A stretch of 64,000 nucleotides of DNA, from assembly GCA_030390025.1 (NCBI GenBank), contig CM059453.1, positions 7,626,001-7,690,000 on the forward strand, read 5' to 3'. This document shows, piece by piece, positions 12,663 to 61,214 of the stretch; positions within the stretch are counted from its first letter, which is position 1, and each line of letters begins with the position of its first letter. A program made the position numbers and the translations under genes. A model generated the notes under the pieces. It was not told the origin of the DNA and searched no databases. It saw nothing but the letters and a program-made list of their open reading frames with translations. The stretch is from Squalus acanthias. Lineage: Eukaryota.

Positions 12663-15600
12663 ATAATAAGAACATAAGAAATAGGAGCAGGAGTAGGCCA
12701 ATCGGCCCCTCGATCCTGCTCCGCCATTCAATAAGATCATGGCTGATCTGATCCTAACCTCAAATCTAAAGAACACAAGAAGTAGGAGCAGGACCCGGTC
12801 ACTCGGCCTCTGGGCCCGCTCCGCCACCCACAGGGCCTTGACCGATCCGAACACAGCCTCATGTCCAATTTCCTGCCCGCTCCCCGTAACCGATAATTCC
12901 CTTTACTTCTAGGAAACTGTCTATTTCTGTTTCAAATTTATTTAATGATGTAGCTTCCACAGCTTCCTGGGGTAGCAAATTCAACAGACCTACTACCCTC
13001 TGAATGAAGAAGTTTCTCTTCGTCACAGTTTTGAAAGAGCAGCCCCTTATTCTAAGATTATGCCCCCTAGTTCTAGTTACACCCATCCTTGGGAACATCC
13101 TTACCACATCCACCCGATCAAACCCCTTCACAATCTTATATGTTTCAATAAGATCGCCTCTCATTCTTCTGAACTCCAATGAGTAGAGTCCCAATCTACT
13201 CAACCCCTCCTCATATGTCCACCCCCTCATCCCCGGGATTAACCGAGTGAACCTTGTTTGTACTGCCTCGAGAGCAAGTATGGCTTTTCTTAAGTATGGA
13301 CACCAAAACTGTATGCAGTATTCCAGGTGCGGTCTCACCAATACCTTATATAACTGCAGCAATACATCCCTGTTTTTATAATCTATCCCCCTAGCATTAA
13401 AAGCCAACATTCCGTTGGCCTTCTTGATCACCTGCTGCACCTGCATACTAACGTTTTGATTTTCTTGCATTAGGACCCCCAGATCACTTTGTACTGCAGT
13501 ACTTTCCAGTTTCTCGCCATTAAGATAATAACTTGCTCTCTGATTTCTCCTGCCAAAGTGCATAACCTCACATTTTCCAATATTGTGTTGCATCTGCCAA
13601 ATCTCCACCCAATCACCCAGCCTGTCTATATCCCCTTGTAGGTTTTTTATGTCCTCCTCACTTTCTACTTTCCCTCCCATCTTTGTATGATCTGCAAACT
13701 TTGATATGTTACACTCGGTCCCCTCCTCCAATTCGTTAATATATATTGTAAAGATTTGGGGACCCAGCACCGACCCCTGCGGAACACCACTGTCTACTGG
13801 TTGCCAGTCCGAGAATGAACCATTTATCCCAACTCTCTGCTTCCTGTTAGATAACCAATCCTCCACCCATGCCAGAATATTACCCGCAATCCAGTGATTT
13901 TTTTATCTTGAGCAATAATCTTTTATGTGGCACCTCGTCGAATGCCTTCTGGAAGTCTAAATACACTACGTCCACTTGTTCCCCTTTAGCCACCCTGTAC
14001 GTTATGTCCTAAAAGAACTCAAGCAAATTTGTCAGACATGACTTCCCCTTCAGAAAGCCATGCTGACTTTGTCCTATTAAATTATGTTTAACTAAATGTT
14101 CCGTTACTGTCTCCTTAATAATAGACTCCAAAAATTTACCCACCACAGATGTTAGGCTAACTGGTCTATAATTTCCAGCCTTCTGCCTACTAACCTTTTT
14201 AAATAAGTGTGTTACATTAGCAGTTTCCCAATCTGCCGGGACCTTTGCTGAGTCCAGGGAATTTTGGAAAATTATTACCAAAGCATGCACAATCCCTTCT
14301 GCCACTTCCCTCAAGACCCTAGGATATAAGCCATCAGGTCCAGGGGATTTATCCGCCTTGAGTCCCATAATTTTACTGAGTACCAATTCCTTAGTGATTT
14401 TAATCGTATTTAGCTCCTCCCCCCCTAGAGCCCCCTGTTTGTCCAGTGTTGGGATATTCTTAGTGTCCTCTACCGTAAAGACTGAAACAATATATTTGTT
14501 CAGCATTTTTGCCATCTCCATGTTTCCCACCATTAATTTCCCGGTCTCATCCTCTAAGGGACCTACGTTTGCCTTAGCCACCCTTTTTCTTTTTATATAA
14601 TTATAGAAACTCTTGCTGTCTGTTTTTATATTTTTTTCTAATTTATTTTCAGAATCTATCTTCCCTTTCTTAATCAGTCCTTTAGTTACTTTTTGCTGTC
14701 TTTTGAAAACTTCACAATCTTCCATCCTCCCACTAAGTTTGGCTACCTTCATATGTCCTTGTTTTTAGTCGGATCCTATCCTTAATTTTTTTACTTCGCC
14801 ACGGATTGCTGTCATTTCTTTTACACCCTTTTTTCCTCAGTGGAATATATATTTTGTGAAATTTGTAAAGTAACTCCTTAAATGATCACCACTGCTCATG
14901 TACCGTCTTACCCTTTAATCTATTTTCCCGGTCCACTTTAATCAATTCCGCACTCATACCTTCATAATCTCCTTTACTCAAGCTCAGTACGCTCGTTTGA
15001 GAACCAACCTTCTCACCCTCTAATGAGATATGGAATTCAACCATGTTATGGCCACTCATTCCAAGGGGATCCTTAACTAGGATATTATTTATTAATCCTG
15101 ACTCATTACACAAGACCAGGTCCAAGGTTGATTGCCCCCTTGTAGGATCAGTTACATACTGCTCAAGAAATGCATCCCTAATACACTCAATAAAATCTTC
15201 CTCCAAGCTGCATTGCCCAATTTGATTTGTCCAGTTAATATGATAGTTAAAATCTCCCATAATTATAGCTGTTCCCTTATTACATGCCCCAACTATTTCC
15301 TGATTAATACTTCTTCCAGCAGAGTTGAAAATATTAGGAGGCCTATATACTACTCCCACTAGTGTTTTTTCCCCCTTATTATTCCTTATCTCCACTCAAA
15401 CTGTTTCATTATCCTGATCCTTTGACCCAATATCATTTATCTGTATTACAGTGATTCCTTCCTTTATTAACATAGCCAGCCCACCTCCCCTTCCTTCCTG
15501 CCTGTCCTTCCTGATTGTTAAATACCCTGGCATATTTAATTCCCAGTCGTTGTCACCCTGCAGCCATGTTTCTGTAATGGCCACAAGGTCATACCCATAC

Positions 15601-15808
15601 GTAGTTATTTGTGCCGTTAACTCGTCCATTTTGTCACGAATGCTACGTGCATTCAGATAAAGAACGTTCAAATATGGTTTCTGACACTTAGTTCCTGCTT
15701 TTTCCTTTTTTAACACTTTACATTTTACTCCATACCTTCTGTCCCTTACTGACATGCTTTCCTCTGTCTCCCTGCTCAGGTGCTCAACCCCCTGACAATT
15801 TAGTTTAC
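12663..15808 (-). mobile_element. CR1 LINE, complete ORF2 (APE endonuclease + RT), inactivated; 5'-truncated near the ORF1 stop
   Basis: ORF pieces 15396-15821 (YLNARS, ITETW), 14886-15395 (YRPP, GDFN), 14009-14752 (KSPGPDG, NYRPVSLTS), 12859-13866 (GVPQGSVLGP, FADH instead of FADD); 3' tail ttcttatgttcttat. Confidence 0.97.
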
Positions 15809-15929
15809 GGATGAGAAGCAAAAGAGATCAGAGAACGAGTAAACGAGAGAGTGAGTGTAGCGAAAGAGGAGATAGAGGAAGCAAAATCGCAATTTGAAGT
15901 CTTCAGAGAAACGTAATAGAGACCGAACT

Positions 15930-18900
15930 CTTTGACCTGGCCAGGGGAAGGCACCAGCAGCCAGGTTCATGGCACCATGGTTGGCTCTGCTGCACAGCAG
16001 GGCGGGAAAAAGAGTGGTAGAGCTATAGTGATAGGGGACTCAATTGTAAGGGGAATAGACAGGAGTTTCTGTGGCCGCAACCGAGATTCCAGGATGGTAT
16101 GTTACCTCCCTGGTGCAAGGGTCAAGGATGTCTCGGAGCGGCTGCAGAAAATTCTGGAAAGGAAGGGTGAAGAGCCAGCTGTCGTGCTGCATGTAGGTAC
16201 CAACGATATAGGTAAAATGCGGGAAGAGGTCCTACAAGCAGAATTTAGGGAGCTAGGAGCTAAATTGTAAAGTAGGACCTCAAAGGTAGTAATCTCTGGG
16301 TTGCTACCAGTGCCACGTGCTAATCAGAGTAGCATGAACAGGATAGCGAGATTAAATACGTGGCTTGAGCAGTGGTGCAGGAGGGATGGATTCAAATACC
16401 TGAGGCATTGGAACCAGTTCTGGGGGAAGTGGGACGTGTACAAAAGGGACGGTCTGCACTTGGGCAGGACTGGAACCGATGTCCTCGGGGTAATATTTGC
16501 TAAGGCAGTTCGGGAGGATTTAAACTAATATGGCAGGGGAATGGGAACCTATGTAGCGAAACAGGGGGAAGTAATATGCAGTCAGAAACAAATGTTAGAA
16601 GGGTGAGAAACAATAAGGGAAATCCGAGTAAACAAAGGCAAGAAACACAAAGGGCCATACTAAATCATAAGTCTAAAACGACAAAGGGTGTTATTAAAAC
16701 AAGCCTAAAGGCTCTGTGTCTTAATGCAAGGAGTATCCGTAATATGGTGGATGAATTGACTGTGCAAATTGATGTTAACGGATATGATGTGATTGGGATT
16801 ACAGAGACGTGGCTCCAGAACAATCAAGGCTGGGAACTGAATATGCAGGGGTATTCAACATTCAGCAAGGATAGAATAAAAGGGAAAGGGGGTGGGGTAG
16901 CATTGCTGGTTAAAAAGGAGATTAATGCAATATCTAGGAAGGACATTAGCTTGGAGGATGTGGAATCAATATGGGTTGAGCTGCAGAACACCAAAGGGCA
17001 GAAAACGTTAGTGGCGGTTGTGTACAGACCTCCAAACAGTAGTAGTGAGGTGGGGGAGGGTATGAAACAGGAAATCAGAGATGCATGCAAAAAAGGCGCA
17101 GCAGTTATCATGGGTGACTGTAATATGCATATAGATTGGGCTACTCAAACTGGAAGCAATACGGTGGAGGGGGATTTCCTGGAGTGTTTAAGAGATGGTT
17201 TCCTAAACCAATATGTTGAGGAACCAACTGGAGGGGAAGCCATCTAGGACTGGGTGTTGTGTAATGAGGAAGGAATAATCAGCAATCTTGTGGTGCGAGG
17301 CCCCTTGGGGATGAGTGACTATAGTATGGTGGAGTTGTACATTAGGATGGAGAAGGAAACAGTTAATTCAGAGACCATGGTCCAGAACTTAAATAAGGGC
17401 AACTTTGAGGGTATAAGGCGTGAATGGGCGAGGTTAGATTGGCAAGCGATATTTAAGGGGTTATCAGTGGAAGGGCAATGGCAGACATTTAGAGATCGCA
17501 TGGATCAACTACAGCAATTGTACATGCCTGTCTGGAGTAAAAATAAAAAAGGGAAGGTGGCTCAACCATGGCTATCAAGGGAAATCAGGGATAGTATTAA
17601 AAGCAAGGAAGTGGCGTACAAATTGGCCAGAAGTAGCAGCAAACCCGGGGACTGGGAGAACTTTAAAACTGAGCAGAGGAGGACGAAGGGTTTGATTAGG
17701 GCAGGGAAAATAAAGTATGAAAGGAAGCTTGTGGAGAACATTACAACGGACTGCAAAAGCTTCCATAAATATGTAAAAAAAAAGAGGTTAGTACAAACAA
17801 ACGTAGGTCCCCTGCATTCAGAAACAGGGGAAGTCATAATGGGGAACAAAGAAATGGCTGATCAATTGAACAAGTACTTTGGTTCGGTGTTTAAAGTGGA
17901 GGACACAAACAACCTTCCGGAAATAAAAGAGACCAAAGGATCTGGTAAGAGGGAGGAGCTGAGGGAAATCCTTATCAGTCGGGAAAAGGTGTTGGGGAAA
18001 TTGCTGGGACTGAAGGCTGATAAATCCCCAGGGCCTGATGGTCTGCATCCCAGAGTACTTAAGGAGGTGGCCTTGGAAATAGTGGATGCATTGACGATCA
18101 TTTTCCAACATTCCTTAGACTCTGGATCAGTTCCGAAGGAATGAAGGGTGGCTAATGTAACCCCTCTTTTTAAAAAAGGAGGGAGGGAGAAAGCAGTGAA
18201 TTATAGACCGGTCTGCCTGACATCGGTGGTGTGTAAAATGATGGAATCAATTATTAAAGATGTCATAACAGACCATTTGGAAAGTGGCGACATGATAGGT
18301 CCAAGTCAGCATGGATTTGTGAAAGGGAAATCATGCTTGACAAATCTTCTGGAATTTTTTGAGGATGTTTCCAATAGAGTGGACGGTGGGGGGGGAAACA
18401 GTAGATGTGGTGTATTTGGACTTTCAGAAGGCCTTCGATAGGGACCCACACAAGAGATTGGTGTGCAAAGTTAAAGCACATGGGATTGTGGGTAATGTGT
18501 TGACGTGGATTGAGAACTGGTTGCCACAAAGGAAACAAAGAGTAGGAGTAAATGGGTACTTTTCAGAATGGCAGGCAGTGACCAGCGGGGTACCGCAGGG
18601 TTCGGTGCTGGGGCCCCAGCTGTTTACATTATATATTAATGATTTGGACGAAGGGATTAATTGTAATATCTCCAAATTTGCGGATGACACTAAATTGGGA
18701 AGCAGTGTGAACAATGAGGAGGATGCTAGGAGGCTTCAGAGTGACTTGGACAGGTTGGGTGAATGGGCAAATGTATGGCAGATGAAGTACAATGTGGATA
18801 AATGTGAGATTATCCACTTTGGTGGAAAAATAGGGAGGCAGACTATTACCTGAATGGTGGCAGATTAGGGAAAGGGGAGGTGCAACGAGACCTGGGCGTC

Positions 18901-19607
18901 ATGGTACATCAGTCACTGAAGGTGGGAAGCCAAGTGCAGCAGACAGTCAAGAAAGCAAATGGCATGATGGCCTTCATAGCGAGGGGATTTGAGTACAGGA
19001 GTAGGGAGGTGATGCTACAGCTGTACAGGGCCTTGGTGAGGCCACACCTGGAGTATTGTGTGCAGTTTTGGTCTCCTAAATAGAGGAAGGACATTCTTGC
19101 TATTGAGGGAGTGCAACGAAGGTTCACTAGATTGATTCCTGGGATGGCCAGACTGACAGATCAAGAAAGATTGGATCAACTGAACTTGTATCCTCTGGAG
19201 TTCAGAAGAATGAGGTGGGATCTTATAGAGACGTTTAAAATCCTGACTGGTTTAGACAAATTAGATGCGGGCAGAATGTTTCCAATGTTAGGGAAAACTA
19301 AAACCAGGAGTCACAGTCTAAGGACAAAGGGGAAGCCATTTAAGACTGAGATGAGGAGGAACTTCTTCACCCAGAGAGTGGTGAATCTGTGGACTTCTCT
19401 ACCACAGAAGGTTGTTGAGGCCAGTTCGCTAAATATATTCAAAAGAGAGTTAGATATAATACTCACAACTAGGAGGATCAAGGGGTATGGCGAGAAAGCA
19501 GGAATGGGGTACTGAGGTAGCATGTTCTGCCATGAACGCATTAAATGGCGGTGCAGGCTCGAAGGACCGAATGGTCTACTCCTGCACCTATTTTCTATCT
19601 TTCTATG
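15930..19607 (+). mobile_element. CR1 LINE, near complete: SGNH/GDSL esterase part of ORF1 + ORF2 (APE + RT), several stops and frameshifts
   Basis: ORF1 blocks IGDSIVRG, LHVGTND, DGLHL (15932-16528). ORF2 CLNARS, ITETW, YRPP, GPDGLHP, GVPQGSVLGP, FADDTKL (16576-19515). Tail ctcctgcacctattttctatctttctatg. Confidence 0.97.
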
Positions 19608-22603: not shown

Positions 22604-22771
22604 TCAGTTCGGTTTAATTGCTGCATATTCGCAGGTCTCCTCATTTTGAATATATTGATGATGTTTGCGGAAGTTGGAGACATTGACGGTCGCGTACGCA
22701 ATCTCGTCAGTCTGAGCTGTTTTAGTCGATTGTGCGGCACCACGACCAGCCTCTGTACATTGATGGTCCCT
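22604..22771 (-). CDS. Gene B terminal exon (ITIM IAYATV, ITSM-like TCEYAAI)
   Basis: gttacag|AGG; RDHQCTEAGRGAAQSTKTAQTDEIAYATVNVSNFRKHHQYIQNEETCEYAAIKPN*. Confidence 0.9.
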   Translation of the reverse strand, partial: RDHQCTEAGRGAAQSTKTAQTDEIAYATVNVSNFRKHHQYIQNEETCEYAAIKPN

Positions 22772-25700: not shown

Positions 25701-28700
25701 GAGGTCAAATGCGTGCGCCGGAGAGGCAGCGCGCACTGTAATTATTTTTTTCAAAAATTTAAATTTTTGTTTAAAATAGTTAATTTATGCAACTTATGGT
25801 TATTTTCAAAATGTTACTGTTTTCTTAAGTTATTTGAAGTTTTAGTTCGGATTTGTGGGGTGATCTCTATTTATAGATTTGACAGGTCTTCCAGTCAAAT
25901 CTATGAATGGAGATTCCCTGCTCCGATTGCCTTCCATGGCCCACGTGATCCCAGGGGACGGCTCGAACTAACTGCGCCCCTGGGATACGCAAGCACTGCA
26001 CACCGCCACTGCAGGAGGCTCAGGACAGGAATCTCACGCGGGCCCACAGCACAACGGCAGGCGCGCAAGGTAAGTGAAGGTCGGGGGCTTGCACCCGCGG
26101 GAAGACTCCGACCCGAATTTATTTTCCATTTAGTCTATCTGTATCCCTTAGCAGACTCTTTGTGTTCTCCTCACAGTTTACTGTCCCACCTAGCTTTGTA
26201 TCATCAACACAATTGGATACATTACACTCGATCCCTTCATCTAGATCAAAATATAGATTGTAAATAGCTGAGGCCCCATTACTGATCATTGCGGCACCCT
26301 ACTAATTGCAGCCTGCCAACCTGAAAAAGATCCGTTAATACCTACGATCTGTTTTCTGTCTGTTAACCTATCCTATATCCATGCTACTATATTACCCCCA
26401 ACCCCATGAGCCCTTATCTTATGTAATAACCTTTTATGTGGCACCTTATGTCTTTTCCTTCTCCCGATTAGCACAGACCAGATCTGCAACCCAATTCTTT
26501 TCAATTTCCACCAGCCAACATTCAAAAGGGAACATTTTACTTTATCTATGATAGGCATTAATATACGTTAATGATACGGTGCTGATTGCTCTAGGTGAAA
26601 GTTGAGTGTGATAAATAACGGTCAGTGCGAGGTTTATTGATAATTTCAACCTGGGTAAATAGCAGATGCAAGTGTTTCAATGTGTAAACGCAGTCCTTTC
26701 TATTATTAGGTAGATCGCTTCAACACATTGGAGTTAGAAATTAGGAATACATAAATATTCATCATCAATCTTTTTGCGATCATTGAATAGTTGATATTAT
26801 TAAGCATGGAATTGCCTTCTTTAAATATATCATGGTACAAGAAGGGTTAAAATCTAGCACCACTCACAAGAGTCTTCTGGCTCATGTTGCTGCGGTTGTT
26901 GCCGAAACATTGGCTGTTGAGGGGCGGCGCCTATCCGAGAAGCAACGTCATAGATTTGAATTGTATACATCCTGTCCGATTGGTTGAAGGATAAATTTGA
27001 TTGGCAGCAGATTGTAAACCTAACTGGGTGTTATTTGAAATCACTTGGAGCCGGTCACAATTCTGAAGGTAATTATCAGCCTGTCTATTAAAAGCAGCGA
27101 GTCTGTCTGGAGCTTTCAAAGAGAGTTGTCAGACCAAATAGCTCAAATCACTGGTAAGAATAAGATAACACGTGCAATATAAATAACTGCTTATGTCAAA
27201 TTTTAGCAGATCAATCACACCCAATTATGAAATATAATGTTCGACTCCTTGAGCCAAACAAACTTAAGAACTACTGTAAACGTATGTGTCACGTTACTTT
27301 TACTATTTGCTTGTTGTTTTACTGTTTCCTGGACTAGCTTGATTGATAGAACTTCAGTGTCAATGTGGTGTAGTGTTATGCTGAGAGCCTGACATGGCAA
27401 GTAGGTTCGTGTGAGGCTGCCCATAAAACCACCAGCAGAAACAAACTGAAAGGGATTGTATGCCCATTCTTTGAGCATGATGAAAACTTTATCCAGATTG
27501 CACGGGAAGCGTAAACACTCCCTGGCACACAGAGCGCCAGCGATCAGAAGTCCAAAAATGTCCACTTTAAACAGAAGGAAACAGACCCCAATAACATAAC
27601 AGGAAGAATGTACAGACAGTCTGATTCAAACAGCCACTAATATTACTGTATATTTGATGCCGGGAGATGCGAACGACTGGGCAGGAATGATTGACCTTCC
27701 TACTTTACGCACCAGTTTAGGCTGATGCCCACTGTACTCATGGGAGTTTAATTTAAAGGAGATTTTGATATACGGACGTTCTGATGCAGGTTTCCTTTGA
27801 AACTTAATTCTATATAATTAATAATCACACCTACCTTTTTATCTTCAGCGTGAGGACGACTGCAATTAGAGTAACAAGCCCGATGGTTCCTCCTCCTATT
27901 ATGAGGACGATTGTCCTGGACAATATTCCTAAAATGTTGGATAACATTGCTCTATATTAGGAATTTGGGATTAAACAACAATCTATCTTGGAAGCACATT
28001 TATGAGTGTGAGGAAGCAAGTTTCCTTTATGTTCGGATCACAAAGCTAATGGTAAATTATATTCTCCACTTGATTCAACCTGTTGATCCTTGCGTAAAAG
28101 CCTTTTGTTCCTGTGTTGCGGACTGGCGTAAATTTGAATTAATAAATTAAGTTTCACTGATGTAAAAATCTCAACTGACAAATTAAGTTCACTCCACAAC
28201 CCACCCTAGGAAAAACAGTGGGCTTAATCTGATCGGAATACAGGGCCGCCAAGGTCAGCAGTTACATCGGTAAGATTTAAAATCTATAGCGATAATTCAA
28301 TTTTGCTTAGGCTATTGAATATCGGCTCTACATAACCAAATGTGTATGAACACGATTGAAATGAGCATGTAGCTAGAAAAGGGTAGATTGCAGTTTGCTA
28401 ACATGTATTGAGATAATTTTGGATTTTCTGAAGAGTTTAACTTAATTCAGAAGCATTTGTTTTCCAAGATCACTGGCAATTTATGGTGATCAAATAATTT
28501 CAACATATCTTGAAAATATAAACCGAACAAGTTGCAGAAGAATGAAAGTTAAAATGGATAATGTCGACCGCACCTTTCAGTTGGTGATTGATCACTGATG
28601 AAAGTGGTCCTAACACTAATTCGAGATAGATTCCGTATGGACTAACTAAGTGAAGCTAATATTTGCTGATACTAACACCGTTCAGTTACTGACTGACCAG

Positions 28701-31700
28701 TGATGCACCAACTCCCTTATAGTATTAAATTACAGATAAATTAAACACGTACCCTTAGAGTGGAGCTGATAATTACTGACAGAATGACCGTGCTCGTTTG
28801 CTGCAACACATGAGATCAGGTTTCCGGTTCCGGTAGGGTGAGTCAATCTCAGAGAGCTCTCCATGAGGTGACTATTCACCGCCCAGGAGATGATTTCCAC
28901 ATCTGACCTGTTCCCAGTGAGGATTCTCCCATTGAGGCCCCACGTGATGTTTCCCGGGGGATTGGCTCTGATCCGGCAGCTACAGTTCGTCCAATTCTCA
29001 GAGCTGGTGCATGTCGGGCCTGCTAAAATTGTGGCTTTATCTAAAAAAAATGGAAACTTCAATAGAAAATGATCATGTAAATAGTTGCAGTATCGAAGTA
29101 CAATTAATTCATGAGTTGAACTTACCATAATAGTTCTGGTAGATATATTTTAAGATGAAGCAACCTATGTTGCACCAGTTGATGGCGTATTATATTTTCA
29201 CTTATAATAGGTGAGCTCGTTAGGAACAATATCATATTAAACCTAATTGGTGTTCAGTCCAACCAGACCTTTCCTGACAGATATTGTGGGGGGGTTCCTC
29301 AGAAATAGCAAGGTCAGTGTGTTAATTATCTATAATATACCCACAAACGTGATTCACCCGTCACTGTTTTAACAGGTGAATTAATTTCAATTTCTTCACT
29401 TTGTGTACTGTTTTCAACATTTTCGTTTATGGTAGACAGAAGTGATTCTTCAATAAATGTCCGGCTAACAAGCCGACACTTCAAAGGACCTTGTCTCGGA
29501 ATATTACCCTGTCAACTCAACATTAGTACAAGTAACATAAGTTGTATTCAAGCCATTTTATCAGATTTCATTTTGGAAAACTTCTGCTCATGAAATTGCT
29601 GCATGTCAGTTCTAAGGATTGGAATATTGTTTACTTCAGACGACGAGTATTATTTATTAAAAATTAGTTGGTTGAGTAAAGTTCCCAGTAAATGTGCTGC
29701 TGTCGTAACCTCATAAATGTAAGACCTACTGCATTTATGGGACATTATTCCAGTTTCCACTCCTGTCATACTGAGCGAGATGCAAGGTTAGTTTCCATAA
29801 TTGGAGCCATCGAGGTAGTTTCCCGCTATTTCCGCGGGAAGGGGTGAACCTATCCCAAACTCATGCACACGGGCACCTTCCAGCCAGCAGGCAAGAGAAA
29901 ATTGGAATTTAATGCAGAATTCTTGAAGTGAAAGGCTACTATCTAATTGAAAATTCATACATACTTACATTGGACTGAAATCTGTGTGGAGCGGTTTGTG
30001 GTGCCCACGGCATTTTCAGCGATGCACCAATCTTCCCCGGCGTCCTCAGAACGAATGTTGTGGAATATTTGATTTAGTTCACCACTGGAAGATCTGCTGA
30101 TCTACTCACAATTTTTCACCCATCTTAATCTGACCTGGGGTTTTCCACAGGCTGTGCAGTATAATAATAATGAACTTCCTTCCACAGCTACTATAGATGA
30201 GTTGATGGCTGGGAGGTCCAGTCCATCTTAAACAGGCGTTAATGCAAAACGTGATTGTCGAATAAGCATAATTGAGCTCCTAATTAATTCATTATATTGG
30301 GTATGGGGATCGGGCGGGAAATATGGAGTTAAGTTCGATGATCAGCCATGATTGCCGGAGTGGTGGAGCAGGCTCGAAGGGCCGTATGGCCTACTCCTGT
30401 TCCTAATTCCTAAGTTCTTATTAAGCCCAACCAGAGCTGAGATCTGGTGTCATAGCTTCAGATCCTAACTCGGCATGGCTTTAGTTGCTTCCATTTATGA
30501 CTGCCTAAACTCAGAACCTGACTGGAAGTTCATAGAATAAGTATTAACAATCACATTAAAACATCTGTTGGAGGCACCATCATTGATTCATGGATATGAA
30601 TGTTTCTAATGTAATATGACTGATGAGAATTACATGTGAGCCATTCCGAACCTTTTTAACCCCTAATAAATTACTTGTGGTAAATGTGCAAATTTGGAGC
30701 TGGTTGGCCGACAGGATAAGTCTGTTTAGTTTAGACCGGACACTTACCTTTAATCTCCAAGCTAAGATTTTGTGCTGAGGAAGTTGGTATACCATCAATT
30801 AGAATTGTGCATCCCAGAATTTTCCCGTCATGAGCAGATGATGGTGTAAAGTTGACGACGGATGAAACTGTCCGAGAACCTGAAGTTTCATTGTTAATTT
30901 CTGCTCCAACTTGAGTATCCATTGCGGGTGGAAGGGACACATTATCAAGAATCCACTTCAGTTTCAGGTTGCCATCCGGGCAGTTGTGGGTGACGGAACA
31001 GGACAATTGTGCAGTTTGTCCAGCGATCAATTCCCCATAACCTGAAATTTCTGGCTTTTCTATAAAAACGGGAGAAAACCAGCTTGTTAGGTACATTTCA
31101 GGGTTAAAACGGGGGATCGATGGCTTACAATTAAATCTGAGAAAGAAATAACAAGAAAATCACATTTTGTTCATTTTACTCAGCCACGTGTTGCAAGTTT
31201 GTTCACCTATCTGAATTACTCCTCGCAGTTGTAATGCAGTTTTATGCCTCATCGGGTAACATATGGCACCACTTAATTAAACATTAGTCGTTATATCTCC
31301 AAATTATTTGTATCATGGATATTGTCCAGTGAACAAATTTTGCACGCTGGATTTAGAATTAACGTTAACTCCGCAAATGTCACGAATATTTCATCCTCTC
31401 GTATACCTCGTTCTGCACCAGCAATTGCCTATGTGGTGGTGATTAATGCAGACCCAGAGAGATCTCGATTCTGTTGTCAAGAAACGTCAATATAGAATGA
31501 TAATGCTCAAGACATGGAAACAACAGACAAAGGATGAGTAACACCGCCTTGTGTGGGAGAGGCAGAGCAGGTTCCTCGCGTGTAAATCTGAAGAAGGCTT
31601 CAGCAGAAATACTATTTGGAGCCTTGGGATTTTAATGAACAAATAAATTATAACTTGAACTGATTTTCACGTTACTGAAATATCTACTTTTTAATTAAGT

Positions 31701-34309
31701 TCTAATTAAAAGCGGGGTAAATGAAGCTGGATAGGGAAAGGCACGAACAAAGACTGCATTAATTCAACGCCTTTTAAGTACTCGTGACGTCAAAAGTCGC
31801 TTCACCAAAAAGTAACTTGAAATGTAATCAAGCAGCCATTGCCGATGGTAAACACAGGAGATTATTGGAGAAGATATTAATAGGTTTGGAATTAAGAATT
31901 AGGTAGAAATTGCAATATAAACTGTTTAGAAGTGACGAAGCAGCGAGTCGCTGTTAAGCGCAGTTGCTCAGAATAGTTGGATCCCAGAACGGTGTCCCAC
32001 AGGGTTGTCCTGTGGAATTGCTTCTATTCACTGTGTGCATCAATAAATTGGATAAAGCGCTAAAGAGAATGATGTCAACATTTCCCGGCAGGAATTAATT
32101 GGATTCCAAAAAAATTAAAAATGGGTGGGGTGTACAATGAGAGGTGCATCCAATATCGCCAGTTTGACACCCATGCCAACGTTGCAAGTACAACTCCCAG
32201 GAGATAACTAGAGAACTAAAGCGAGTTTCAAACGGATAGTGCAGATATAGTAGAATGGGGAGATAAGAGGCAGATATCATAAAAGTTCAGAAAATATGAG
32301 GTGGTAGATGTTCATTTGAACCGTAGGAAGCTGCGAGATGTGGAAGAGCAGAGTAATTTGGGGTCAGGTTCATGAGGCAGTAAAAGCAGCACCTCCAGTG
32401 GGAAAGTGTATGAAGATGTTTCTGGAGCTCTGGCTTTAATGGCAAGAGATCAATAATATAAATTCGAGAATAGTGGAGATTCTAACGAGAATAGTAGTTA
32501 TTTCACAGTTGGAGTAAGAATGCGGGTATTGGGCTCCAGTCTATAGGAAGGATTTAGGGCGGATTCGCGTACATTCTGGCTCGTAAAAGGAAGTTTAAAT
32601 AACAAGAAAATATTTAAAAATTGGGGTAGATCTAATTAGTTTAGAACTGATTTTGTGATGATTTAACAGAAGTGCTTAAACTTATTAAGCAACGGGACAG
32701 AGAAGATAGAAGGAGACTGAAGTAGAATTTGAAATGGACGCCCTGGTCAAATCTCTCATTCCAGATAATTCACCCATTGGAGCAACCGCCTAGTTAAATT
32801 GCCTTTCATTTCATTGGAAATAATGAGCTGCTGGTTTATGTATTGTAAGTAGGACCCAAAATCGTCAGTTTTAGTTTCAGTCAACATGTGCTAATCTATC
32901 CTCATGTGAACATATTCAGAATAGGCTCGACAGGTATTTGAAGGGAATTGCAATAAAGGGATATGGGAACTGAACTGACGCATGCGATTCGGAGTTTTGC
33001 TCATGTGAAGGACAAACAGTCACACTGACTGTCTGGGCCGAAGGGCCTGTTTTACTGCTGTAATTTCAATATACTTCTGTGTTTAGGATATCAGACATCT
33101 GCGACACTTATCAGTATCCCTGCACCCTATGTTTCAACAACCCTTTGAGATCGGTCAGGGATATTTTAATATATTCCCACTTTGCACATAGGTTGATTCA
33201 TACTAAAGCACTGGAGTGAAAATGTACAAAAGGAACAAAGGGAATACTCACCTAAAACAGAAATAATTACGTCAGTACACATAGTCTGACGTTTATTAAT
33301 ATCACTGGCCGAAGCGATCTCGATGCTGAGTTCGTATGTACCCTCATCACCCTTCCTGATATCCTTTAGCAGGAGGGAACATTGTTTCATTTCAATGTTA
33401 CACTTGAACTGAGCTCTTCCACCATAGTTATAATGCTGCCTGTCTGGATCTTTAGAATCATAGATAATGGAGAAACCTTGGTTACCAGGAGCATGTTCCC
33501 TCTTTAACCACGTCACATCAGCGATTCTCCGATAGACTGGATAATCAAACGTACACCGGATCTCTGCACATGAACCGGCCACCGCCGACACAACTTTTGG
33601 CATCAGCACAGAGAATTCAGCACTAATAACAACTGCGAAAAATAAATTAGACACACTTTAATTAGCCATTCAAAATGCATTTCAGCATCTTTATCATCCA
33701 TTACAGTATTTGTTAATTGACAAATAATCGCCCATCACAATAGCAATTAAAATATCAGTGAAGGTCTTTTCAAAATCAAGAAAAAATACTAAATAAAATC
33801 CAATCACAACACCGATTGAAATGGTCAAAGGAGTACCTATTTGATGAGCGATTTATGAACCGGTAATATACATATATAATACTCATCTAAAAAACGAATA
33901 CATATCCACTAACAAGTAAGCGAACACCAATAAAAATTCTCATTAAATATACATTAAAATATTGATCAAAATAAATATTAAACATCTATTGAATCTCCTT
34001 TGAATCACTCAATCAATATGAAGTAAGTTTTATTAAATGTGCTTTACAATAAAGTATATTGAAAATTCCTATTTTTAAATATTATTTGAATAGGCTGTAT
34101 TCGCTGTAACACAACAACAACGCATGCGTTTAGCAATCATGAAATTCATATTTCACAAGTTCTGATGTCAACAACAAAAACATCATTCATATTCTTTATT
34201 TTGCTGTTCCTTTCCCACAAGATATAAATCACTTGCAGAAATTGTAAAAAAGCATCAGAAATGTACCTTCTGTCAACATTAAGAGAGGCAGCAGCACGGA
34301 ACGCCTCAT
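22604..34309 (-). CDS. Siglec/MAG-like Ig receptor gene B (leader, V, C2, C2, C2, TM, ITIM, ITIM, ITSM-like); one in-frame TAG in the D3 exon
   Basis: Exons 34267-34309, 33252-33632, 30748-31059, 29969-30226, 28753-29040, 27835-27928, 24514-24601, 22604-22771. All GT-AG and phase-compatible (1,1,1,1,1,2,0). 543 codons in total, 457 aa if D3 is skipped. Siglec Cys pattern GSCAEIRC, QCSL, CSVTHNCP. Confidence 0.8.
22930..23735 (+). mobile_element. Degraded CR1 3' fragments in the last intron of gene B
   Basis: cggctggagtattgtgtccaattc motif and two CR1-type tails (~23080, ~23730). Confidence 0.7.
23825..24080 (-). mobile_element. Degraded DeuSINE-like fragment
   Basis: Loose reverse-complement match to 1915-2170 and 40585-40960. 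Confidence 0.5.
24514..24601 (-). CDS. Gene B cytoplasmic exon 1 (ITIM VIYSRV)
   Basis: ttcag|G ... GAC|gtaagt; KKHGAAARVSEAHDDLVIYSRVQYALKAD. Confidence 0.87.
24711..26450 (-). mobile_element. CR1 3' part, specific to gene B (absent at the matching site in C, ~55625)
   Basis: RT C-terminal peptides at 24929-25357 and 26373-26450; tail aagaacataagaaataagaaataggagcagg. Confidence 0.92.
25565..26127 (+). mobile_element. MITE copy (internally deleted) inserted in the CR1
   Basis: GGGCCAGAAATTCGGG start; interrupts contiguous CR1 sequence gcccactcact/ttagtctatct. Confidence 0.82.
27835..27928 (-). CDS. Gene B transmembrane exon
   Basis: ttttag|GA ... AAAAG|gtagg; GILSRTIVLIIGGGTIGLVTLIAVVLTLKIK(R). 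Confidence 0.9.
28753..29040 (-). CDS. Gene B membrane-proximal D4 Ig exon
   Basis: Open, 288 nt, KATILAGPTC...NCSCRIRANPPGNITW...ISCVAANEHG, resembling the last Ig domain of Siglecs/MAG. Confidence 0.92.
29969..30226 (-). pseudogene. Gene B D3 Ig exon with premature TAG (30102-30104)
   Basis: GLDLPAINSSIVAVEGSSLLLYCTACGKPQVRLRWVKNCE*ISR...EDAGEDWCIAENAVG; 258 nt; weak taag acceptor. Confidence 0.9.
30748..31059 (-). CDS. Gene B C2-set D2 exon
   Basis: Open, 312 nt, EKPEISG...LSCSVTHNCP...LGCTI...LEIK. Confidence 0.93.
31850..32720 (+). mobile_element. Very old CR1-like RT remnant in the V-D2 intron, shared with gene C (~49000-49870, minus)
   Basis: Degenerate ggtgtcccacagggt, cagttggagta and ctataggaaggat motifs. 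Confidence 0.55.
33252..33632 (-). CDS. Gene B V-set exon
   Basis: Open; core of ORF 33166..33654; F strand GTYELSIE. Confidence 0.93.
34267..34309 (-). CDS. Gene B signal-peptide exon
   Basis: accATG, MRRSVLLPLLMLTE G|gtac, phase 1; paralog at 47404-47446. Confidence 0.85.
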
Positions 34310-44299: not shown

Positions 44300-44966
44300 A
44301 TGATGAGGGGGCTGGGTGCATCTCTGCTCAGGGTTATTTTGCAATGGGTGAGCCTCATATATCCTGCAACAGCGGGCCACACACTGATGTAAACTGTTAT
44401 ATTTGAAGAGTCCCAGATTTCCAACAGTTTAGATCACCAACATTTCAGGAGTGGCGAAAGCTGTGTGAGCTACCACGGTTCCCAATGATTGTTGGGTGGC
44501 GAACAGCTGACCTCCTAATACTCTGATTCGATTCATTACGAACTCCAATATATTAGCGGCGAACCGAAAACAGAAACTACATCACTTATATCTGAGATAA
44601 AAACTATTTATGTCATTTTGACATCGTCAACCGCCTCCAGTCATGAAGAATATTAAATTTATTTCCAATCCGATATTTAGCGAAGGTAAAACATATTCAT
44701 AGGGTATGTGGTTAAAGGGAGTCCTGATCCTGGAACCTCACGGGTCTCGATTATCTATGATTCCAGGGATTCAGACAACGTACCCTTAAATTATAGCGGG
44801 CGAGCTGAGTTCACCGGCGAATTTATAAAGAAACAATGTTCCTTACGGTTAAAGGACAACGGCAAACGCGATCAAGGTGACTATTATTACATATTGAAGA
44901 TCATCACTGCCTTGAATACTACAGAAGGATATTCTTCCGGATCTAAAGTCACACTTTTTATTTTAT
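44300..44966 (+). pseudogene. Siglec-like fragment D: leader + 5'-deleted V exon (inverted paralog of gene A)
   Basis: Leader MMRGLGASLLRVILQW 44300-44347. V remnant ~44701-44966 (YSGRAEFTGEFIKKQCSLRL...GDYYYILKI) ends T|gtaag. The acceptor and A/B strands are deleted, and no D2 follows. Confidence 0.88.
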
Positions 44967-47403: not shown

Positions 47404-47446
47404 ATGAGCAGTTGCGTGCTGCTGCCTCTGATAATGTTGACAGAAG
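47404..47446 (+). CDS. Gene C signal-peptide exon
   Basis: gtcATG, MSSCVLLPLIMLTE G|gtac. Confidence 0.85.
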
Positions 47447-48084: not shown

Positions 48085-48471
48085 TTGTTTTTAGTGCTGC
48101 ATCCTCTGTGAAGATACCAAAAGTTGTGTCGGCGGTGGCCGGTTCATGTGCAGAGATCCGGTGTACGTTTGATTTTGATTATCCAGACTATCGGGGAATC
48201 GTTGATATGACGTGGTTAAAGAGGGAACCTGGTCTTGGTAAGACTGGCTTCTCCATTATATATGATCCTAAAGATCCACACAGGCAGCATAATAACTACC
48301 GTGGAAGAGCTGAGTTCAAGTGTAACATTGAAAAGAAACTATGTTCCCTCCTGCTAACGGCTATCAGGAAGAGTGATCAGGGTAAATACCAACTCAGAAT
48401 CGAGATCGCTTCGGCCATATTTAATAATAGACCTCGGCCTCTGCATGCTGAGGTATTTCTTTCTGTTTTAG
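48085..48471 (+). CDS. Gene C V-set exon with the sialic-acid-binding Arg
   Basis: Open, 387 nt; GSCAEIRCTF, LCSLLL, GKYQLRIE (Arg codon 48396-98). Confidence 0.93.
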
Positions 48472-50166: not shown

Positions 50167-50478
50167 AAACGCCACATATTTCAAGTTATGGCGTTCTGAT
50201 CGCTGGAAAAACTGCACGACTGACCTGCTCCATCAGACACAACTGCCCGAATGGCAACCTGCAACTGAAGTGGATTAATTATAATGTGTCCCTTCCTCTT
50301 CAATGGGATATACAAGAAGGAGTAGGAATGATCAAAGAACGTTCAGGTTCTCGGACAGTTTCATCCGTGCTGACCTTCACTCCATCATCTGCTCATCACG
50401 GGAAAATTCTGGGATGCACAATTCTAATTGATGGTATCCCAGCTCCTTCAGCACAAAATCTTATCTTGGAGATTAAAT
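50167..50478 (+). CDS. Gene C C2-set D2 exon
   Basis: Open, 312 nt; taatag|AA ... AAAT|gtaag. Confidence 0.93.
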
Positions 50479-51064: not shown

Positions 51065-51321
51065 ATGGATTGGAAATCCCAACCGTCAACTCCTCTATAG
51101 TAGCTATGAAAGGAAGTTCATTATTATTGTACTGCACGGCCTGGGGGAAACCCCTGGTCAGTTTAAGATGGGTGAAAAATGGTGAAGAGACCAGCAGGTC
51201 TTCCACTGGTGAACTGAAGCAGATATTACACAACATTCGTTCTGAAGACGCGGTGAATATTGGTGCATAGCTGAAAATGCCCTGGGCACCACAAAACGTT
51301 CCACACAGATTTCAGTACATT
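51065..51321 (+). pseudogene. Gene C D3 exon with a 1-nt deletion (~51251)
   Basis: 257 nt versus 258 in B. GAC GC- GGT GAA TAT TGG TGC (DAGEYWC) is shifted, giving TAG at 51268-70. Confidence 0.9.
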
Positions 51322-52247: not shown

Positions 52248-52535
52248 ATAAAGCCACAATTTTAGCAGGCCCGACATGCACCAACTCTGAGAATTGGACG
52301 AATTGTAACTGCCGGATCAGAGCCAATCCCCCGGGAAACATCACGTGGGACCTCAATGGGAGAATCCTCACTGGGGACATGTCAGATGTGGAAATCATCT
52401 GCTGGGCGGTGAATAGTCTCATCATGGAGAGCTCCCTGAGATTGACTCACCCAACTGGAACCGGAAACCTGATCTCATGTGTTGCAGCAAACGAGCACGG
52501 TGATTCTCTCAGTAAATACCAGCTCCATTCTAAGG
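52248..52535 (+). CDS. Gene C D4 Ig exon
   Basis: Open, 288 nt; about 11 aa differences from B over 95. Confidence 0.92.
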
Positions 52536-53358: not shown

Positions 53359-53452
53359 GAATATTCTCCAGGACAATTCTTCTCATCATCAGAGGAGGAG
53401 CCAGTGGGATGTTGTTACTAATTGCAGTCGTGCTCCTGCTGAAGATACAAAG
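53359..53452 (+). CDS. Gene C transmembrane exon, with Arg in the hydrophobic stretch
   Basis: GIFSRTILLIIRGGASGMLLLIAVVLLLKIQ(R); AGA at 53391-93 where B has GGA. Confidence 0.9.
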
Positions 53453-55723: not shown

Positions 55724-55802
55724 GAAGAAGAGCAGTGAGGCTGTATGTGTGCCGAAAACGGCTAGCGGTGCGATGGTGTACACTGAGGTTCTAAACGGTG
55801 AG
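55724..55802 (+). CDS. Gene C cytoplasmic exon 1 (non-canonical MVYTEV)
   Basis: ttttag|G ... GAG|gtaagt; KKSSEAVCVPKTASGAMVYTEVLNGE. Confidence 0.85.
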
Positions 55803-56110: not shown

Positions 56111-56252
56111 AGGGAGGATCACGTGAGCCCCGCGATCGATGCAACCAGCTCAGAATGAAGAGATTGTGTACGTGACTGTCAATGTCTCACACAACCGCAA
56201 TCATGAACCATATAGCCCAAATGAGAAGACCAGCGATTATGCACCAATTAAA
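56111..56252 (+). pseudogene. Gene C terminal exon; ITIM IVYVTV and ITSM-like TSDYAPI are out of frame
   Basis: gttacag|AGG. Phase-0 reading REDHVSPAIDATSSE* stops at 56156-58; 17 nt shorter than B before the ITIM. Confidence 0.85.
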
Positions 56253-56815
56253 CATAAGAACAGAAGAAATAGGAGCAGGAGAAGGCCATTCGGTCCCTGG
56301 AGTCTGCTCCGCCATTCAATAATTCATGGCTGATCTGATATTGGCCTCAACTGCACTTTCCCGCTCTCTCCGCATAACCGTTCACTCCCCTGTAGCTCAA
56401 ATATCTGTCTATCTCCTCCTTGAATATATTCAATGACTCCTCCTCCACAGCTCTCTGGGGTAGAGAATTCCAAAGATTCATGGCTCGCTGAGAGAAGTAA
56501 TTCCTCCTCATTTTTGTTTTAAATGGGCGAGCCCTTATTCTGAAACTATGCCCCCTAGTTCTAGATTCCCCGACGAGGGGAAACATCATCTATGCATCTA
56601 CACTCTCAAGCCCCCTCAGAATCTGATATGTTTCAATAAGATCACCTCTCATTCTTCTAAACTCCAATGAGTATAGGCCCAACCTGCTCAGCCTTTCCTC
56701 ATAAGACAACCCCTTCATCCCAGGAATCACCCTAGTAAATCATCTCTGAACTGACTCCAATGCAAGTATATCCCTCCTGAAATAAGGAGACCAAAACTGT
56801 ACGCAGTACTCCAGT
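56253..56815 (-). mobile_element. CR1 3' end inserted just before the ancestral stop codon of gene C
   Basis: ATT AAA [CR1] CTT AAG TGA aagttaac versus B ATT AAA CCG AAC TGA aagttaac. Confidence 0.92.
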
Positions 56816-58074
56816 ACTTAAGTGAAAGTTAACTGTTAGCGCGGATGGTCTTGAAACTGACAATGCCTGAACACACCTGATGTTATGAAGTAAAACAGAC
56901 ATCATTACAATACAATGAGGGCTATGAGAATGGAGAACTTTCAGAATATTAGTGGATTTCTTTGATTTATATTAACAATCTCGTTGTACCTGAAATAAAG
57001 TAGGGAGTGTGAATTTTTTCTGAATGTAACTGTTCAACATTTTTCTCTATTCTGTGAAATTAACTATTTTACAAACCATTTCTTACATCGTCTTTGTCTG
57101 TTAATCTGCTGAAATGTATTGGCCCACAGTATGAACCCTCAAAACCGTGTAGCAGGTGCCAAAAAAATTGCAATGAAACACCAGGAAATAAACTTTATTT
57201 GCTACTGCGCCTGAAAATCAGGTGCGAATTTCAAGAGAACCATATATATGGGCGTAGACGAGTTCTGGCGAGAGTTCCAGACAATTGTCAATACTCATTC
57301 ATCTGGGCTTATTTGATTTGTGCCCCGATTGTGAACATTTGACAAGTATTCCCAGGGCATTTCAGTCAGTTTTCCGCTCACCCAGCACAACACTCGAGTG
57401 GCTACTTGTTTCCCCTAATTATATCAGCACAATTCAGGGAAATTTGTAGAATGAGAGCTAAAGAGCGTGGAATTTTAAACGTTAGTGCGCTAGGTCCACG
57501 ACCACTTACTCTCAATTTTTTCCTTCAACTTTTAACAGTTTTAAGTTTTAATTGTACCCAATCAGGTTCCACCGACAAAGCTGGCCTTGCACCCAGGTCG
57601 TAATTGCGAGATTGTGTTGATTCTCAAAGGCTCATAAAATTGCGCTCATTTTCTTAGGCGCAAAGGCAGGAGTAGGCATATTTTAATAGATACCTCATAT
57701 TATTAAACAAAGTGAATTTCTAAGGCACCGTAATTTTCCATTTCATATCATGCAGTTATAACTCGGGGAACTAAAAGAGTAACGTCGTCTGTGATGCACT
57801 GGGTGCTGTGCGCTTTGGCATCAGCAATGGTTCCTGAAGATTATCTGCAACTTGTATTCCCAGTTTAATCGAAAAGAGTTGAACTTTAGACCATATACCA
57901 GCCAAAGCCATTCGCTAATGGATCCAATGTAACAAATGCATTGTTTATAGAAAGGCAAAAGCACAGCGAAGTAAAGGTCATGGACTGAAACCTAACGAAG
58001 AGGTTCGAATGGCTCATGTGTAATTTAACAGATATCCAACAACGACTTCGGGATTGGATTCTGACCTATTGTTT

Positions 58075-58985
58075 TGGTTGGTTTATATGCAGAATAGCGG
58101 ATACCCGGAAGTGAGTTACAGGCTGGAATCTAATCCAGGGGTTCGGGGGGTTTATATGTAGAATAACAGATACTTGGGAGTGAGTTAAAGGCTGGAATCT
58201 AATCGAGGGGTTCGGGGGGTTTATATGTAGATTAACTGATACCCGGGAATGAGTTACAGGCTGCAATCTAATCGAGGGGTTCGGGGGGGTTTATATGTAG
58301 AATAACAGATACCCGGGAGTGAGTTACAGGCTGTAATCTAATCGAGGGGTTCGGGGGGGTTTATATGTAGAATAACAGATACCGAGGAGTGAGTTACAGG
58401 CTGGAATCGAATCGAGGGGTTCGGGCTGTTTATATATAGAATAACAGGTAGCCAGGAGTGAATTACAGTCTGGAATCTAATAGAACGGATCGAGGGTTTA
58501 TATGTGGAATACAATATACCTGGGAGGGAGTTACAGGCTGGAGTCTAATCGAGGTGTTCGGAGTGGTTTATATATAGAATAACAGATACCCGGGAGTGAG
58601 TTACAGTTTGGAGTCTAATCGAGGTGTTCGGGTGGTTTATATATAGAATAACAGATACCCGGGAGTGAGTTACAGGCTGGAATCTAATCGAGGGGTTCGG
58701 GTGGTTTATATATAGAATAACAGATAACGGGGAGATTGCTACAGGCTGGATTCTAATCGAGGGGTTTGGGGGTTTTATATATAGAATAACAGATACCTGG
58801 GAGTGAGTTACAGGCTGGAATCTAATCGAGGGGTTCGGAGGGTTTAAAAAAAAGAATAACAGATACCCGAGAGTGAGTTACAGGCTGGAATCTATTCAAA
58901 GGGGTTCGGGGGTTTTATATGTAGAATAACAGATACCCGGGATTGAGTTACAGGCTGCAATCAAATCGAGGCGTTCGTGGGGTTA
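58075..58985. repeat. ~69-bp minisatellite (~13 units), inverted relative to 9040-9700
   Basis: ggtttatatatagaataacagatacccgggagtgagttacaggctggaatctaatcgaggggttcggg units. Confidence 0.95.
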
Positions 58986-58987
58986 AT

Positions 58988-60992: not shown

Positions 60993-61214
60993 AGGGATCA
61001 TCCAGACAGTGACGGCTGGGAAGTGATATCCAACTCAACTTAGCAGAAGGAAGAAATTACTTACGCCACTGTGCACTTTTCAAGTATTCCTCAAGGGCAC
61101 GGATATGTACATAGCAACGAGATGAGCGAATATGCAGCTATTAAATTTACCAGAAAAGGACCAGAACTTAGAGAGGACGCTTCTCTGAATCTCAAAGTTT
61201 CTTTGTCCAAATGA
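60993..61214 (+). pseudogene. Orphan Siglec-type terminal exon E (ITIM ITYATV, ITSM-like SEYAAI) behind an in-frame TAG
   Basis: ctgttgcag|AGG; RDHPDSDGWEVISNST*QKEEITYATVHFSSIPQGHGYVHSNEMSEYAAIKF...*; homologous to 22604-22771. Confidence 0.85.

Follow-up and report, generated by a model that had tools for sequence, protein, structure and literature searches.

A disabled immunoglobulin exon in two MAG/Siglec-like receptor genes of Squalus acanthias and its possible bypass by splicing

In the clustered KIR receptor family, an internal immunoglobulin (Ig) exon can be disabled differently from one paralog to the next, its splice sites may remain intact, and the gene can function one domain shorter. 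All lineage III KIR2D genes carry a pseudoexon for the D0 domain (exon 3), inactivated by mechanisms that differ between genes (PMC2194033), and exon 3 of macaque Mamu-KIR1D, which bears a 5-bp deletion, is skipped although its splice sites are intact (PMC6288254). A nonsense substitution can alter splicing through a changed splice motif (PMC8464065), and SIGLEC11 and SIGLEC16 form a head-to-head pair with similar 5' regions, one with ITIMs (inhibitory motifs of the immunoreceptor tyrosine-based type) and one without, in which null alleles occur (PMC5701461). The present analysis concerns a 64,000-nt stretch of Squalus acanthias DNA (assembly GCA_030390025.1, contig CM059453.1, positions 7,626,001 to 7,690,000; hereafter the window), which holds two genes, termed B and C, that by homology are shark MAG/Siglec-like receptors and in which the same Ig exon, D3, is broken by different mutations. 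The reading favoured here, which we regard as evenly poised between right and wrong, is that B still works and that its D3 would be a young pseudoexon of the KIR type, bypassed by splicing.

Compared with KIR, two differences stand out: skipping has been shown by transcripts in KIR, whereas for B and C it is proposed from DNA, and KIR genes lose their first domain, whereas B and C would lose a stalk domain. A stop codon that creates its own in-frame splice donor, as described below for B, is unmentioned in the accessible text of PMC2194033 and PMC6288254. The proposed bypass belongs to a known kind and would work like the KIR case if skipping were shown. If B is expressed without D3, it would offer a snapshot of a receptor family in the act of dropping a domain, with the exon disabled first and deleted later; this would explain why D3-bearing and D3-less genes stand side by side on the family tree, would carry the KIR pseudoexon pattern over to cartilaginous fish, and would caution that genes in clusters of this type can be wrongly called pseudogenes. 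In the accessible literature on shark Siglecs and Siglec pseudoexons, which includes PMC8455134 but few subscription journals, no report of exon loss in Siglec-like genes of sharks was found.

The window is a cluster of Ig-superfamily receptor genes set amid many repeats. Genes B, on the minus strand from 34309 to 22604, and C, on the plus strand from 47404 to about 56260, duplicate each other in inverted orientation, with 84-89% similarity over about 8 kb, and lie head-to-head with 13,095 nt between their start codons. Each has eight exons, encoding a leader, a V domain, the Ig domains D2, D3 and D4, a transmembrane segment and two tail exons, and all Ig exons of both genes are of phase 1-1. 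The tail exons encode ITIM-like motifs and, out of frame in C, motifs resembling the immunoreceptor tyrosine-based switch motif (ITSM). The exons are as follows.

34267..34309, minus strand: B leader exon, with the ATG at 34309
33252..33632, minus strand: B V-set exon, with Ser at 33327-33325 in the column of MAG's sialic-acid-binding Arg
30748..31059, minus strand: B exon D2 (C2-set)
29969..30226, minus strand: B exon D3, 258 nt with phase 1-1, encoding an Ig domain of I-set/C2 type and interrupted by TAG
28753..29040, minus strand: B exon D4, membrane-proximal, aligned with the last Ig domain of MAG
27835..27928, minus strand: B transmembrane exon, hydrophobic core without a charged residue
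24514..24601, minus strand: B cytoplasmic exon 1, with ITIM-like VIYSRV
22604..22771, minus strand: B last exon, holding IAYATV (ITIM-like) and TCEYAAI (ITSM-like) ahead of the stop
47404..47446, plus strand: C leader exon
48085..48471, plus strand: C V-set exon, with Arg at 48396-48398 in the column of MAG's essential Arg
50167..50478, plus strand: C exon D2
51065..51321, plus strand: C exon D3, 257 nt, with one base deleted at about 51250/51251 and the shifted frame stopping at 51268-51270
52248..52535, plus strand: C exon D4
53359..53452, plus strand: C transmembrane exon, Gly>Arg (53391-53393) within the best hydrophobic window
55724..55802, plus strand: C cytoplasmic exon 1, with MVYTEV, a non-canonical ITIM
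56111..56260, plus strand: C last exon, net 17-nt deletion, stop at 56156-56158, ITIM/ITSM-like motifs out of frame

The segment 26930-26868 was considered as a tail exon and rejected, as it shows stops or a frameshift in B and C and the true tail exons lie further on.

The lesions reported in the preliminary description were all found in place. In B, a TAG at 30104-30102 (minus strand) replaces what is a Glu codon in C, 133 nt ahead of the D3 donor; it is the gene's one lesion, since the other seven exons are open and keep their GT/AG sites, so that the 1374 nt of coding sequence outside D3, together with the splice sites and the tail motifs, are lesion-free. The same exon shows the previously noted change GEYWC>GEDWC, a Tyr>Asp at 30030-30032 (minus strand) within the D-x-G-x-Y-x-C motif that is private to B, and the extra Cys of the earlier account proved to be two (W26C and G39C). 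D3 is the sole domain of B that lacks an Ig-core residue, the F-strand Tyr. In C, one base is missing from D3 at about 51250/51251, and D3 is flanked by phase-1 introns in both genes. B has two of the features of a KIR-type pseudoexon, a disabled Ig exon in an otherwise intact gene and a symmetric exon (phase 1-1) whose removal preserves the frame; its skipping would yield the expected in-frame product of 457 aa. The 416 aa calculated for the corresponding product of C are correct as a length, but a further lesion of C, the net loss of 17 nt from its last exon, stops the frame at 56156-56158, before the ITIM/ITSM-like motifs, and the product is truncated. The weaker acceptor attributed to D3 of B (taag versus tcag) is present, although the site is otherwise ordinary, with 14/20 pyrimidines (11-16 in the other acceptors of B) and only the A at -3 unusual.

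What did not carry over is the weight placed on the finding that D3 is broken in all three paralogs of the window. The third, A, is a more distant paralog than B and C are to each other and is cut by the window edge; its TGA at 90-88 does replace the B-strand Cys codon, but A is uninformative because five lesions are spread over its three visible exons, as had been conceded when it was said to add little. For the remaining two genes, random placement of lesions in proportion to exon length (one for B, two for C) makes both hit the same exon with a probability of 0.30 (0.046 if D3 is named in advance), so that the coincidence is by itself weak. The visible exons of A are listed below.

1..158, minus strand: paralog A exon D3, 5' part only (window edge), TGA at 90-88
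958..1254, minus strand: paralog A exon D2, with a stop and one base deleted
4123..4503, minus strand: paralog A V exon, with a stop and one base inserted

The proposed sequence of events starts after the split of B and C, when each gene gained a recent private lesion in D3; the lesions themselves are observed. The pre-mRNA of B would then be spliced into a mixture of transcripts with full D3, without D3 and with a shortened D3. A stop codon several exon junctions upstream of the last one normally triggers nonsense-mediated decay (NMD). In transcripts with full D3 the stop lies five junctions ahead of the last, and they would be removed, so that the rescued forms would dominate the surviving message, which would encode a shorter ITIM receptor. 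Skipping of D3 would make B a membrane-bound inhibitory receptor of 457 aa; alternatively, splicing at a GTGAGT donor made by the stop mutation would retain a 117-nt exon and give a protein of 496 aa with a half-domain in its stalk. The case is weaker for C because C has also lost its distal tail motifs, and a functional C is accordingly rated less likely than a functional B, unless C acts as an activating partner.

The second route had been overlooked in the preliminary description, which named skipping and inclusion. The feature in question is the following.

30104..30109, minus strand: GTGAGT donor consensus, completed by the stop mutation, phase 1

At 30109-30104, GTGAAG in C corresponds to GTGAGT in B through a synonymous GAA>GAG and the nonsense GAG>TAG (G>T), and the donor so completed lies 5 nt upstream. 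A cut at this site would leave an exon at 30226-30110, of phase 1 and ending ahead of the stop, with a stop-free frame. It is the only GTRAGT among the seven exons of B and seven of C that were scanned. Its predicted pairing with U1 (-7.1 kcal/mol, for the U1 5' end) is close to that of the real D3 donor (-7.3 kcal/mol), and it matches 6.5/11 consensus positions versus 9/11. Across seven further stretches of Ig exon, 260 single-base changes to a stop are possible, of which none would complete such a donor, and the background is about 0.002; the coincidence was noticed post hoc, and the phase of the donor is set by geometry and is therefore no second coincidence. The 496-aa product would keep 39 codons of D3, among them the B-strand Cys, which would be left without its partner, and three residues further the new Cys. 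No half-D3 isoform occurs among the retrieved homologs, as 14/14 motif matches run on as full D3. PMC8464065 deals with skipping caused by enhancer loss, whereas the base that makes the stop of B also completes a new donor (5' splice site); enhancer loss as a cause of skipping was considered for B through counts of TGAAG (0 in its D3, 3 in that of C) and set aside as too weak to use.

The assignment of the genes to the MAG/Siglec group is based on several lines of comparison. As homologs they have RefSeq models from sharks and rays that bear the names Siglec-8/12/13/14-like or MAG-like, and the solved structure nearest to the family profile is that of MAG (Siglec-4; PDB 5lf5; E 2e-34), followed by Siglec-8, CD33 and Siglec-5. 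Pfam assigns V-set and Ig_CD22 to both V exons and I-set to D3, D2 matches C2-set_2 just below the cut-off, and the Pfam scan of D4 gave no match. With a leader and a transmembrane exon, a V-set domain at the N terminus and C2-type Ig domains after it, the layout is that of a type I membrane protein. The Siglec cysteine pattern, with an extra Cys in V and in D2, is kept in B and C, where the profile Cys columns align with those of MAG, and D4 aligns with MAG's last Ig domain; the shark family differs from MAG in having four Ig domains instead of five and in being multi-copy and fast-evolving. The essential F-strand Arg of the V domain is absent from B, which has Ser in MAG's Arg column, and B is therefore described as Siglec-like and not as a canonical Siglec. 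C retains the Arg, A has Ile in this column, and many shark homologs also lack the residue. The Ser was considered as a second lesion in B and ruled out, as intact homologs carry Ser, Ile or Leu there. The closest models (XP_041032759.1, XP_067831324.1, XP_067831356.1, XP_067831293.1, XP_067883557.1 and Pristiophorus P0169) share 37-76% identity per domain, the same exon-sized modules and the tail motifs.

Among the RefSeq shark and ray Siglec/MAG-like models, D3-bearing and D3-less forms both occur as predictions. Thirty-five named proteins were classed by BLAST against the four Ig exons of B, and 31 models were kept after P0168 and P0176-P0178 had been dropped as isoforms or cluster-mates; the hits left uncounted are mostly distant and unnamed. 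D2 is joined directly to D4 in 16 of the 31, while 8 have D2-D3-D4, 3 lack D2, 1 lacks both and 3 are partial, so that D2 is also lost at times. When the white shark model XP_041032759.1 is aligned with B, the gap corresponds exactly to the D3 exon and D2 meets D4 at that point. In a tree of D2 plus D4 (22 rows), D3-less models are sister to D3-bearing ones in two well-supported clades (Heptranchias 96/89, Scyliorhinus 100/98), and D3 loss therefore looks recurrent. Judged from these models, D3 is an optional module and the D3-less V-D2-D4 receptor a normal architecture of the family; in B and C the exon is still there, in broken form, whereas in the D3-less models it may be either deleted or a pseudoexon.

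Of twelve runs available, none of them recorded as RNA, four other shark DNA runs from four organisms were compared with 28740-31070 at 80% likeness (the largest was read to about 55%), on the basis of 40 of the 595 substitution differences and 12 of the 26 indel differences. The runs are DNA, as their contigs cover introns, and several distinct contigs are present per position; in none is D2 joined to D4, a joint that contigs of DNA would not reveal. The codon at 30104 is Glu and that at 30032 Tyr in 17/17 covering contigs, so the TAG and the Asp are private to B, and in related copies D3 looks intact at these two codons. Since B differs from all covering contigs also at several intron positions (e.g., 29231, 29304-29306, 29438 and 29625), the runs do not contain B itself. 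An apparent excess of substitution differences in D3 over D4 (9 vs 0, p=0.001) was not relied on, coming from 40/595 differences and being absent in the comparison of D3 with D2 (p=0.62) and with intron 4 (p=0.38). Three small DNA assemblies (170-255 million letters) cover 28740-31070 with several distinct contigs, suggesting a multi-copy family in these organisms as well.

Between B and C, the ratio of non-synonymous to synonymous divergence (dN/dS) is 3.6 in V, 0.81 in D2, 0.34 in D3 and 0.52 in D4. The V value exceeds 1 at p=0.006, with 46 non-synonymous and 4 synonymous differences, suggesting positive selection on a ligand-binding domain. Divergence is 0.06 over D4 (29088-28789 vs 52248-52535) compared with 0.12-0.24 in adjoining windows, and it increases 3' of the transmembrane exon; patchy gene conversion between the two genes is a possible cause. 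When changes are polarised with protein outgroups, the derived amino-acid changes of B number 11 in D3 (85 aa), 14 in D2 (103 aa) and 2 in D4 (95 aa), and the excess of D3 over D4 is significant (Fisher p=0.007). In D4 of C there are 8 derived changes, including an extra Cys. It is the kind of change that sets D3 of B apart: besides the stop, conserved columns have turned from Tyr to Asp, in the core, and from Gly to Cys. A rough estimate of the time needed, 0.02-0.04 substitutions per site, comes from 43 conserved D3 columns, at which B has 2-4 private changes. Over such a span of neutrality in the whole of B, the other exons should have gathered 2.3-4.7 lesions, yet they have none (P 0.10-0.01); for a span of 0.01 the probability rises to 0.31, as would suit a very young pseudogene.

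Several of the results weigh against a bypassed D3. The preliminary description had expected relaxed selection on this exon and had named an equal relaxation elsewhere as speaking against it; in the per-exon check, the dN/dS of D3 is the lowest of the four Ig exons and is below 1 at p=0.006, so that this refuting condition applies. With A serving as outgroup for the initial 156 nt of D3, the B branch shows 8 non-synonymous and 7 synonymous changes and an omega of about 0.34 (p=0.056 vs neutral), from which it follows that any decay of D3 is recent. Long-standing relaxed selection is ruled out by these two values, and the neutral decay confined to one exon that would be looked for in a KIR-type pseudoexon is absent at a dN/dS of 0.34; as a very young pseudoexon would show no decay yet, the low ratio limits the age of D3 and not its state. 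In derived changes, D3 equals D2 (p=1.0), which includes W46M and L44P at conserved columns, and the contrast with D4 may come from gene conversion in D4. Both D3 splice sites of B are still canonical, the estimated share of nonsense mutations that lead to skipping is only 5-30% (PMC8464065), and intact D3 is included in 11/11 RefSeq isoform models of three genes, so that an intact D3 is not routinely skipped. The RefSeq models are moreover predictions, in which D3 may have been deleted or omitted by the annotator. Of the earlier claim that D3 is dispensable, what stands is the common D3-less architecture and the otherwise intact B; what does not is a more relaxed D3, a telling triple hit, or a C free of further lesions.

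Some of these points also favour the main competing view, that B and C are young pseudogenes or null alleles in a cluster evolving by birth and death, with D3 still spliced in, degradation of the mRNA and mere coincidence behind the shared exon. We consider this a real though lesser possibility. The same-exon chance, the purifying selection on D3 until recently, the second lesion and extra D4 changes of C, and the low prior for nonsense-induced skipping all agree with it, as do three other dead pieces in the window (A, a truncated V exon at about 44700-44965 and an orphan last exon at about 60993), and null alleles are common in human SIGLEC16 and SIGLEC12 (PMC5701461, PMC6288428). A death of B less than 0.01 substitutions per site ago would give a probability of at least 0.31 of finding no other lesion. 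It explains less well why the stop, the Tyr>Asp and the Gly>Cys of B fall at conserved columns of one exon while the rest of the gene is clean, why the stop coincides with a new in-frame donor, and why the D3-less product is a normal form of the family. An origin of one or both D3 lesions in assembly errors is very unlikely. The TAG of B occurs in 0/17 contigs, the 1-nt gap of C is not among the 12/26 indels compared, and the lesion of C is a single-base indel, possibly in a CC pair, but contigs that do not contain B itself cannot speak to its stop, which is accompanied by several private substitutions, unlike one base-call error, and the second lesion of C is a 17-nt deletion. More improbable still is full inclusion of D3 with secreted V-D2 decoys (286 aa from B, 315 aa from C) as functional products. 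Leader, V and D2 are whole in both truncations, and soluble LILR forms can act as decoys (PMC10679719), yet both stops lie where NMD would normally follow, the products would finish in half a domain with free cysteines, and the transmembrane and tail exons of B stay intact.

Compatible with a bypassed D3, and rated unlikely in its own right, is the view that B and C are paired inhibitory and activating receptors, that the tail frameshift and Arg of C are adaptive and that D3 was dropped in parallel. The sequences have the corresponding pattern, an ITIM-bearing B and a C with a charged transmembrane segment and a short tail. The 13-kb head-to-head arrangement resembles that of SIGLEC11/16 (about 9 kb; PMC5701461), B-C similarity is higher at the 5' side and drops after the transmembrane exon, the V domain has its high dN/dS, and a transmembrane Arg with a short tail is the LILRA pattern (PMC10679719). 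Differences from SIGLEC11/16 are that C has its charge, an Arg, close to where the span leaves the membrane on the outer side, which is the LILRA arrangement, and that a fresh conversion would give a B-C identity above the observed 87-90% or so; an activating role of C is putative. The Gly>Arg is moreover a single-base change that could be decay, an ITIM-like motif persists in the Mustelus homolog P0003 although it too has Arg at this position, C itself retains one non-canonical Tyr motif, and C would need both D3 skipping and adaptor binding. A combined version, in which the stop of B rescues itself through its own donor to leave a 39-codon stalk with a new Cys-x-x-Cys, while B and C shed D3 in parallel, each in its own way, as an inhibitory/activating pair, seems improbable; if true, a family-wide domain loss would be caught in progress.

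As for the neighbouring copies, a fourth one is visible at about 44700-44965 (plus strand) as an inverted duplicate of the V exon of A; its 5' part and acceptor are gone through a deletion of about 470 nt, and its remainder is open. The orphan last exon at 60993-61200 (plus strand) has an in-frame stop ahead of its ITIM/ITSM-like motifs and could belong to this fourth copy or serve as an alternative end of C.

About 75 nt upstream of the D3 acceptor of B, a very high-copy short repeat at 30300-30424 is present in B and C, not in A, and also in contigs of the other organisms; from its copy number and length we infer a SINE-like (short interspersed) element, which could affect recognition of the exon. 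Long open reading frames at 12862-19600 resemble, by their motifs, fragments of a long interspersed element (LINE) endonuclease/reverse transcriptase, and one of them (13902-12862) is open for 347 aa. An assembly gap of 141 N (11809-11949) lies between A and B, and tandem repeats of about 69-70 nt each form an array that occurs in two inverted copies, at 9039-9800 and 58055-58987.

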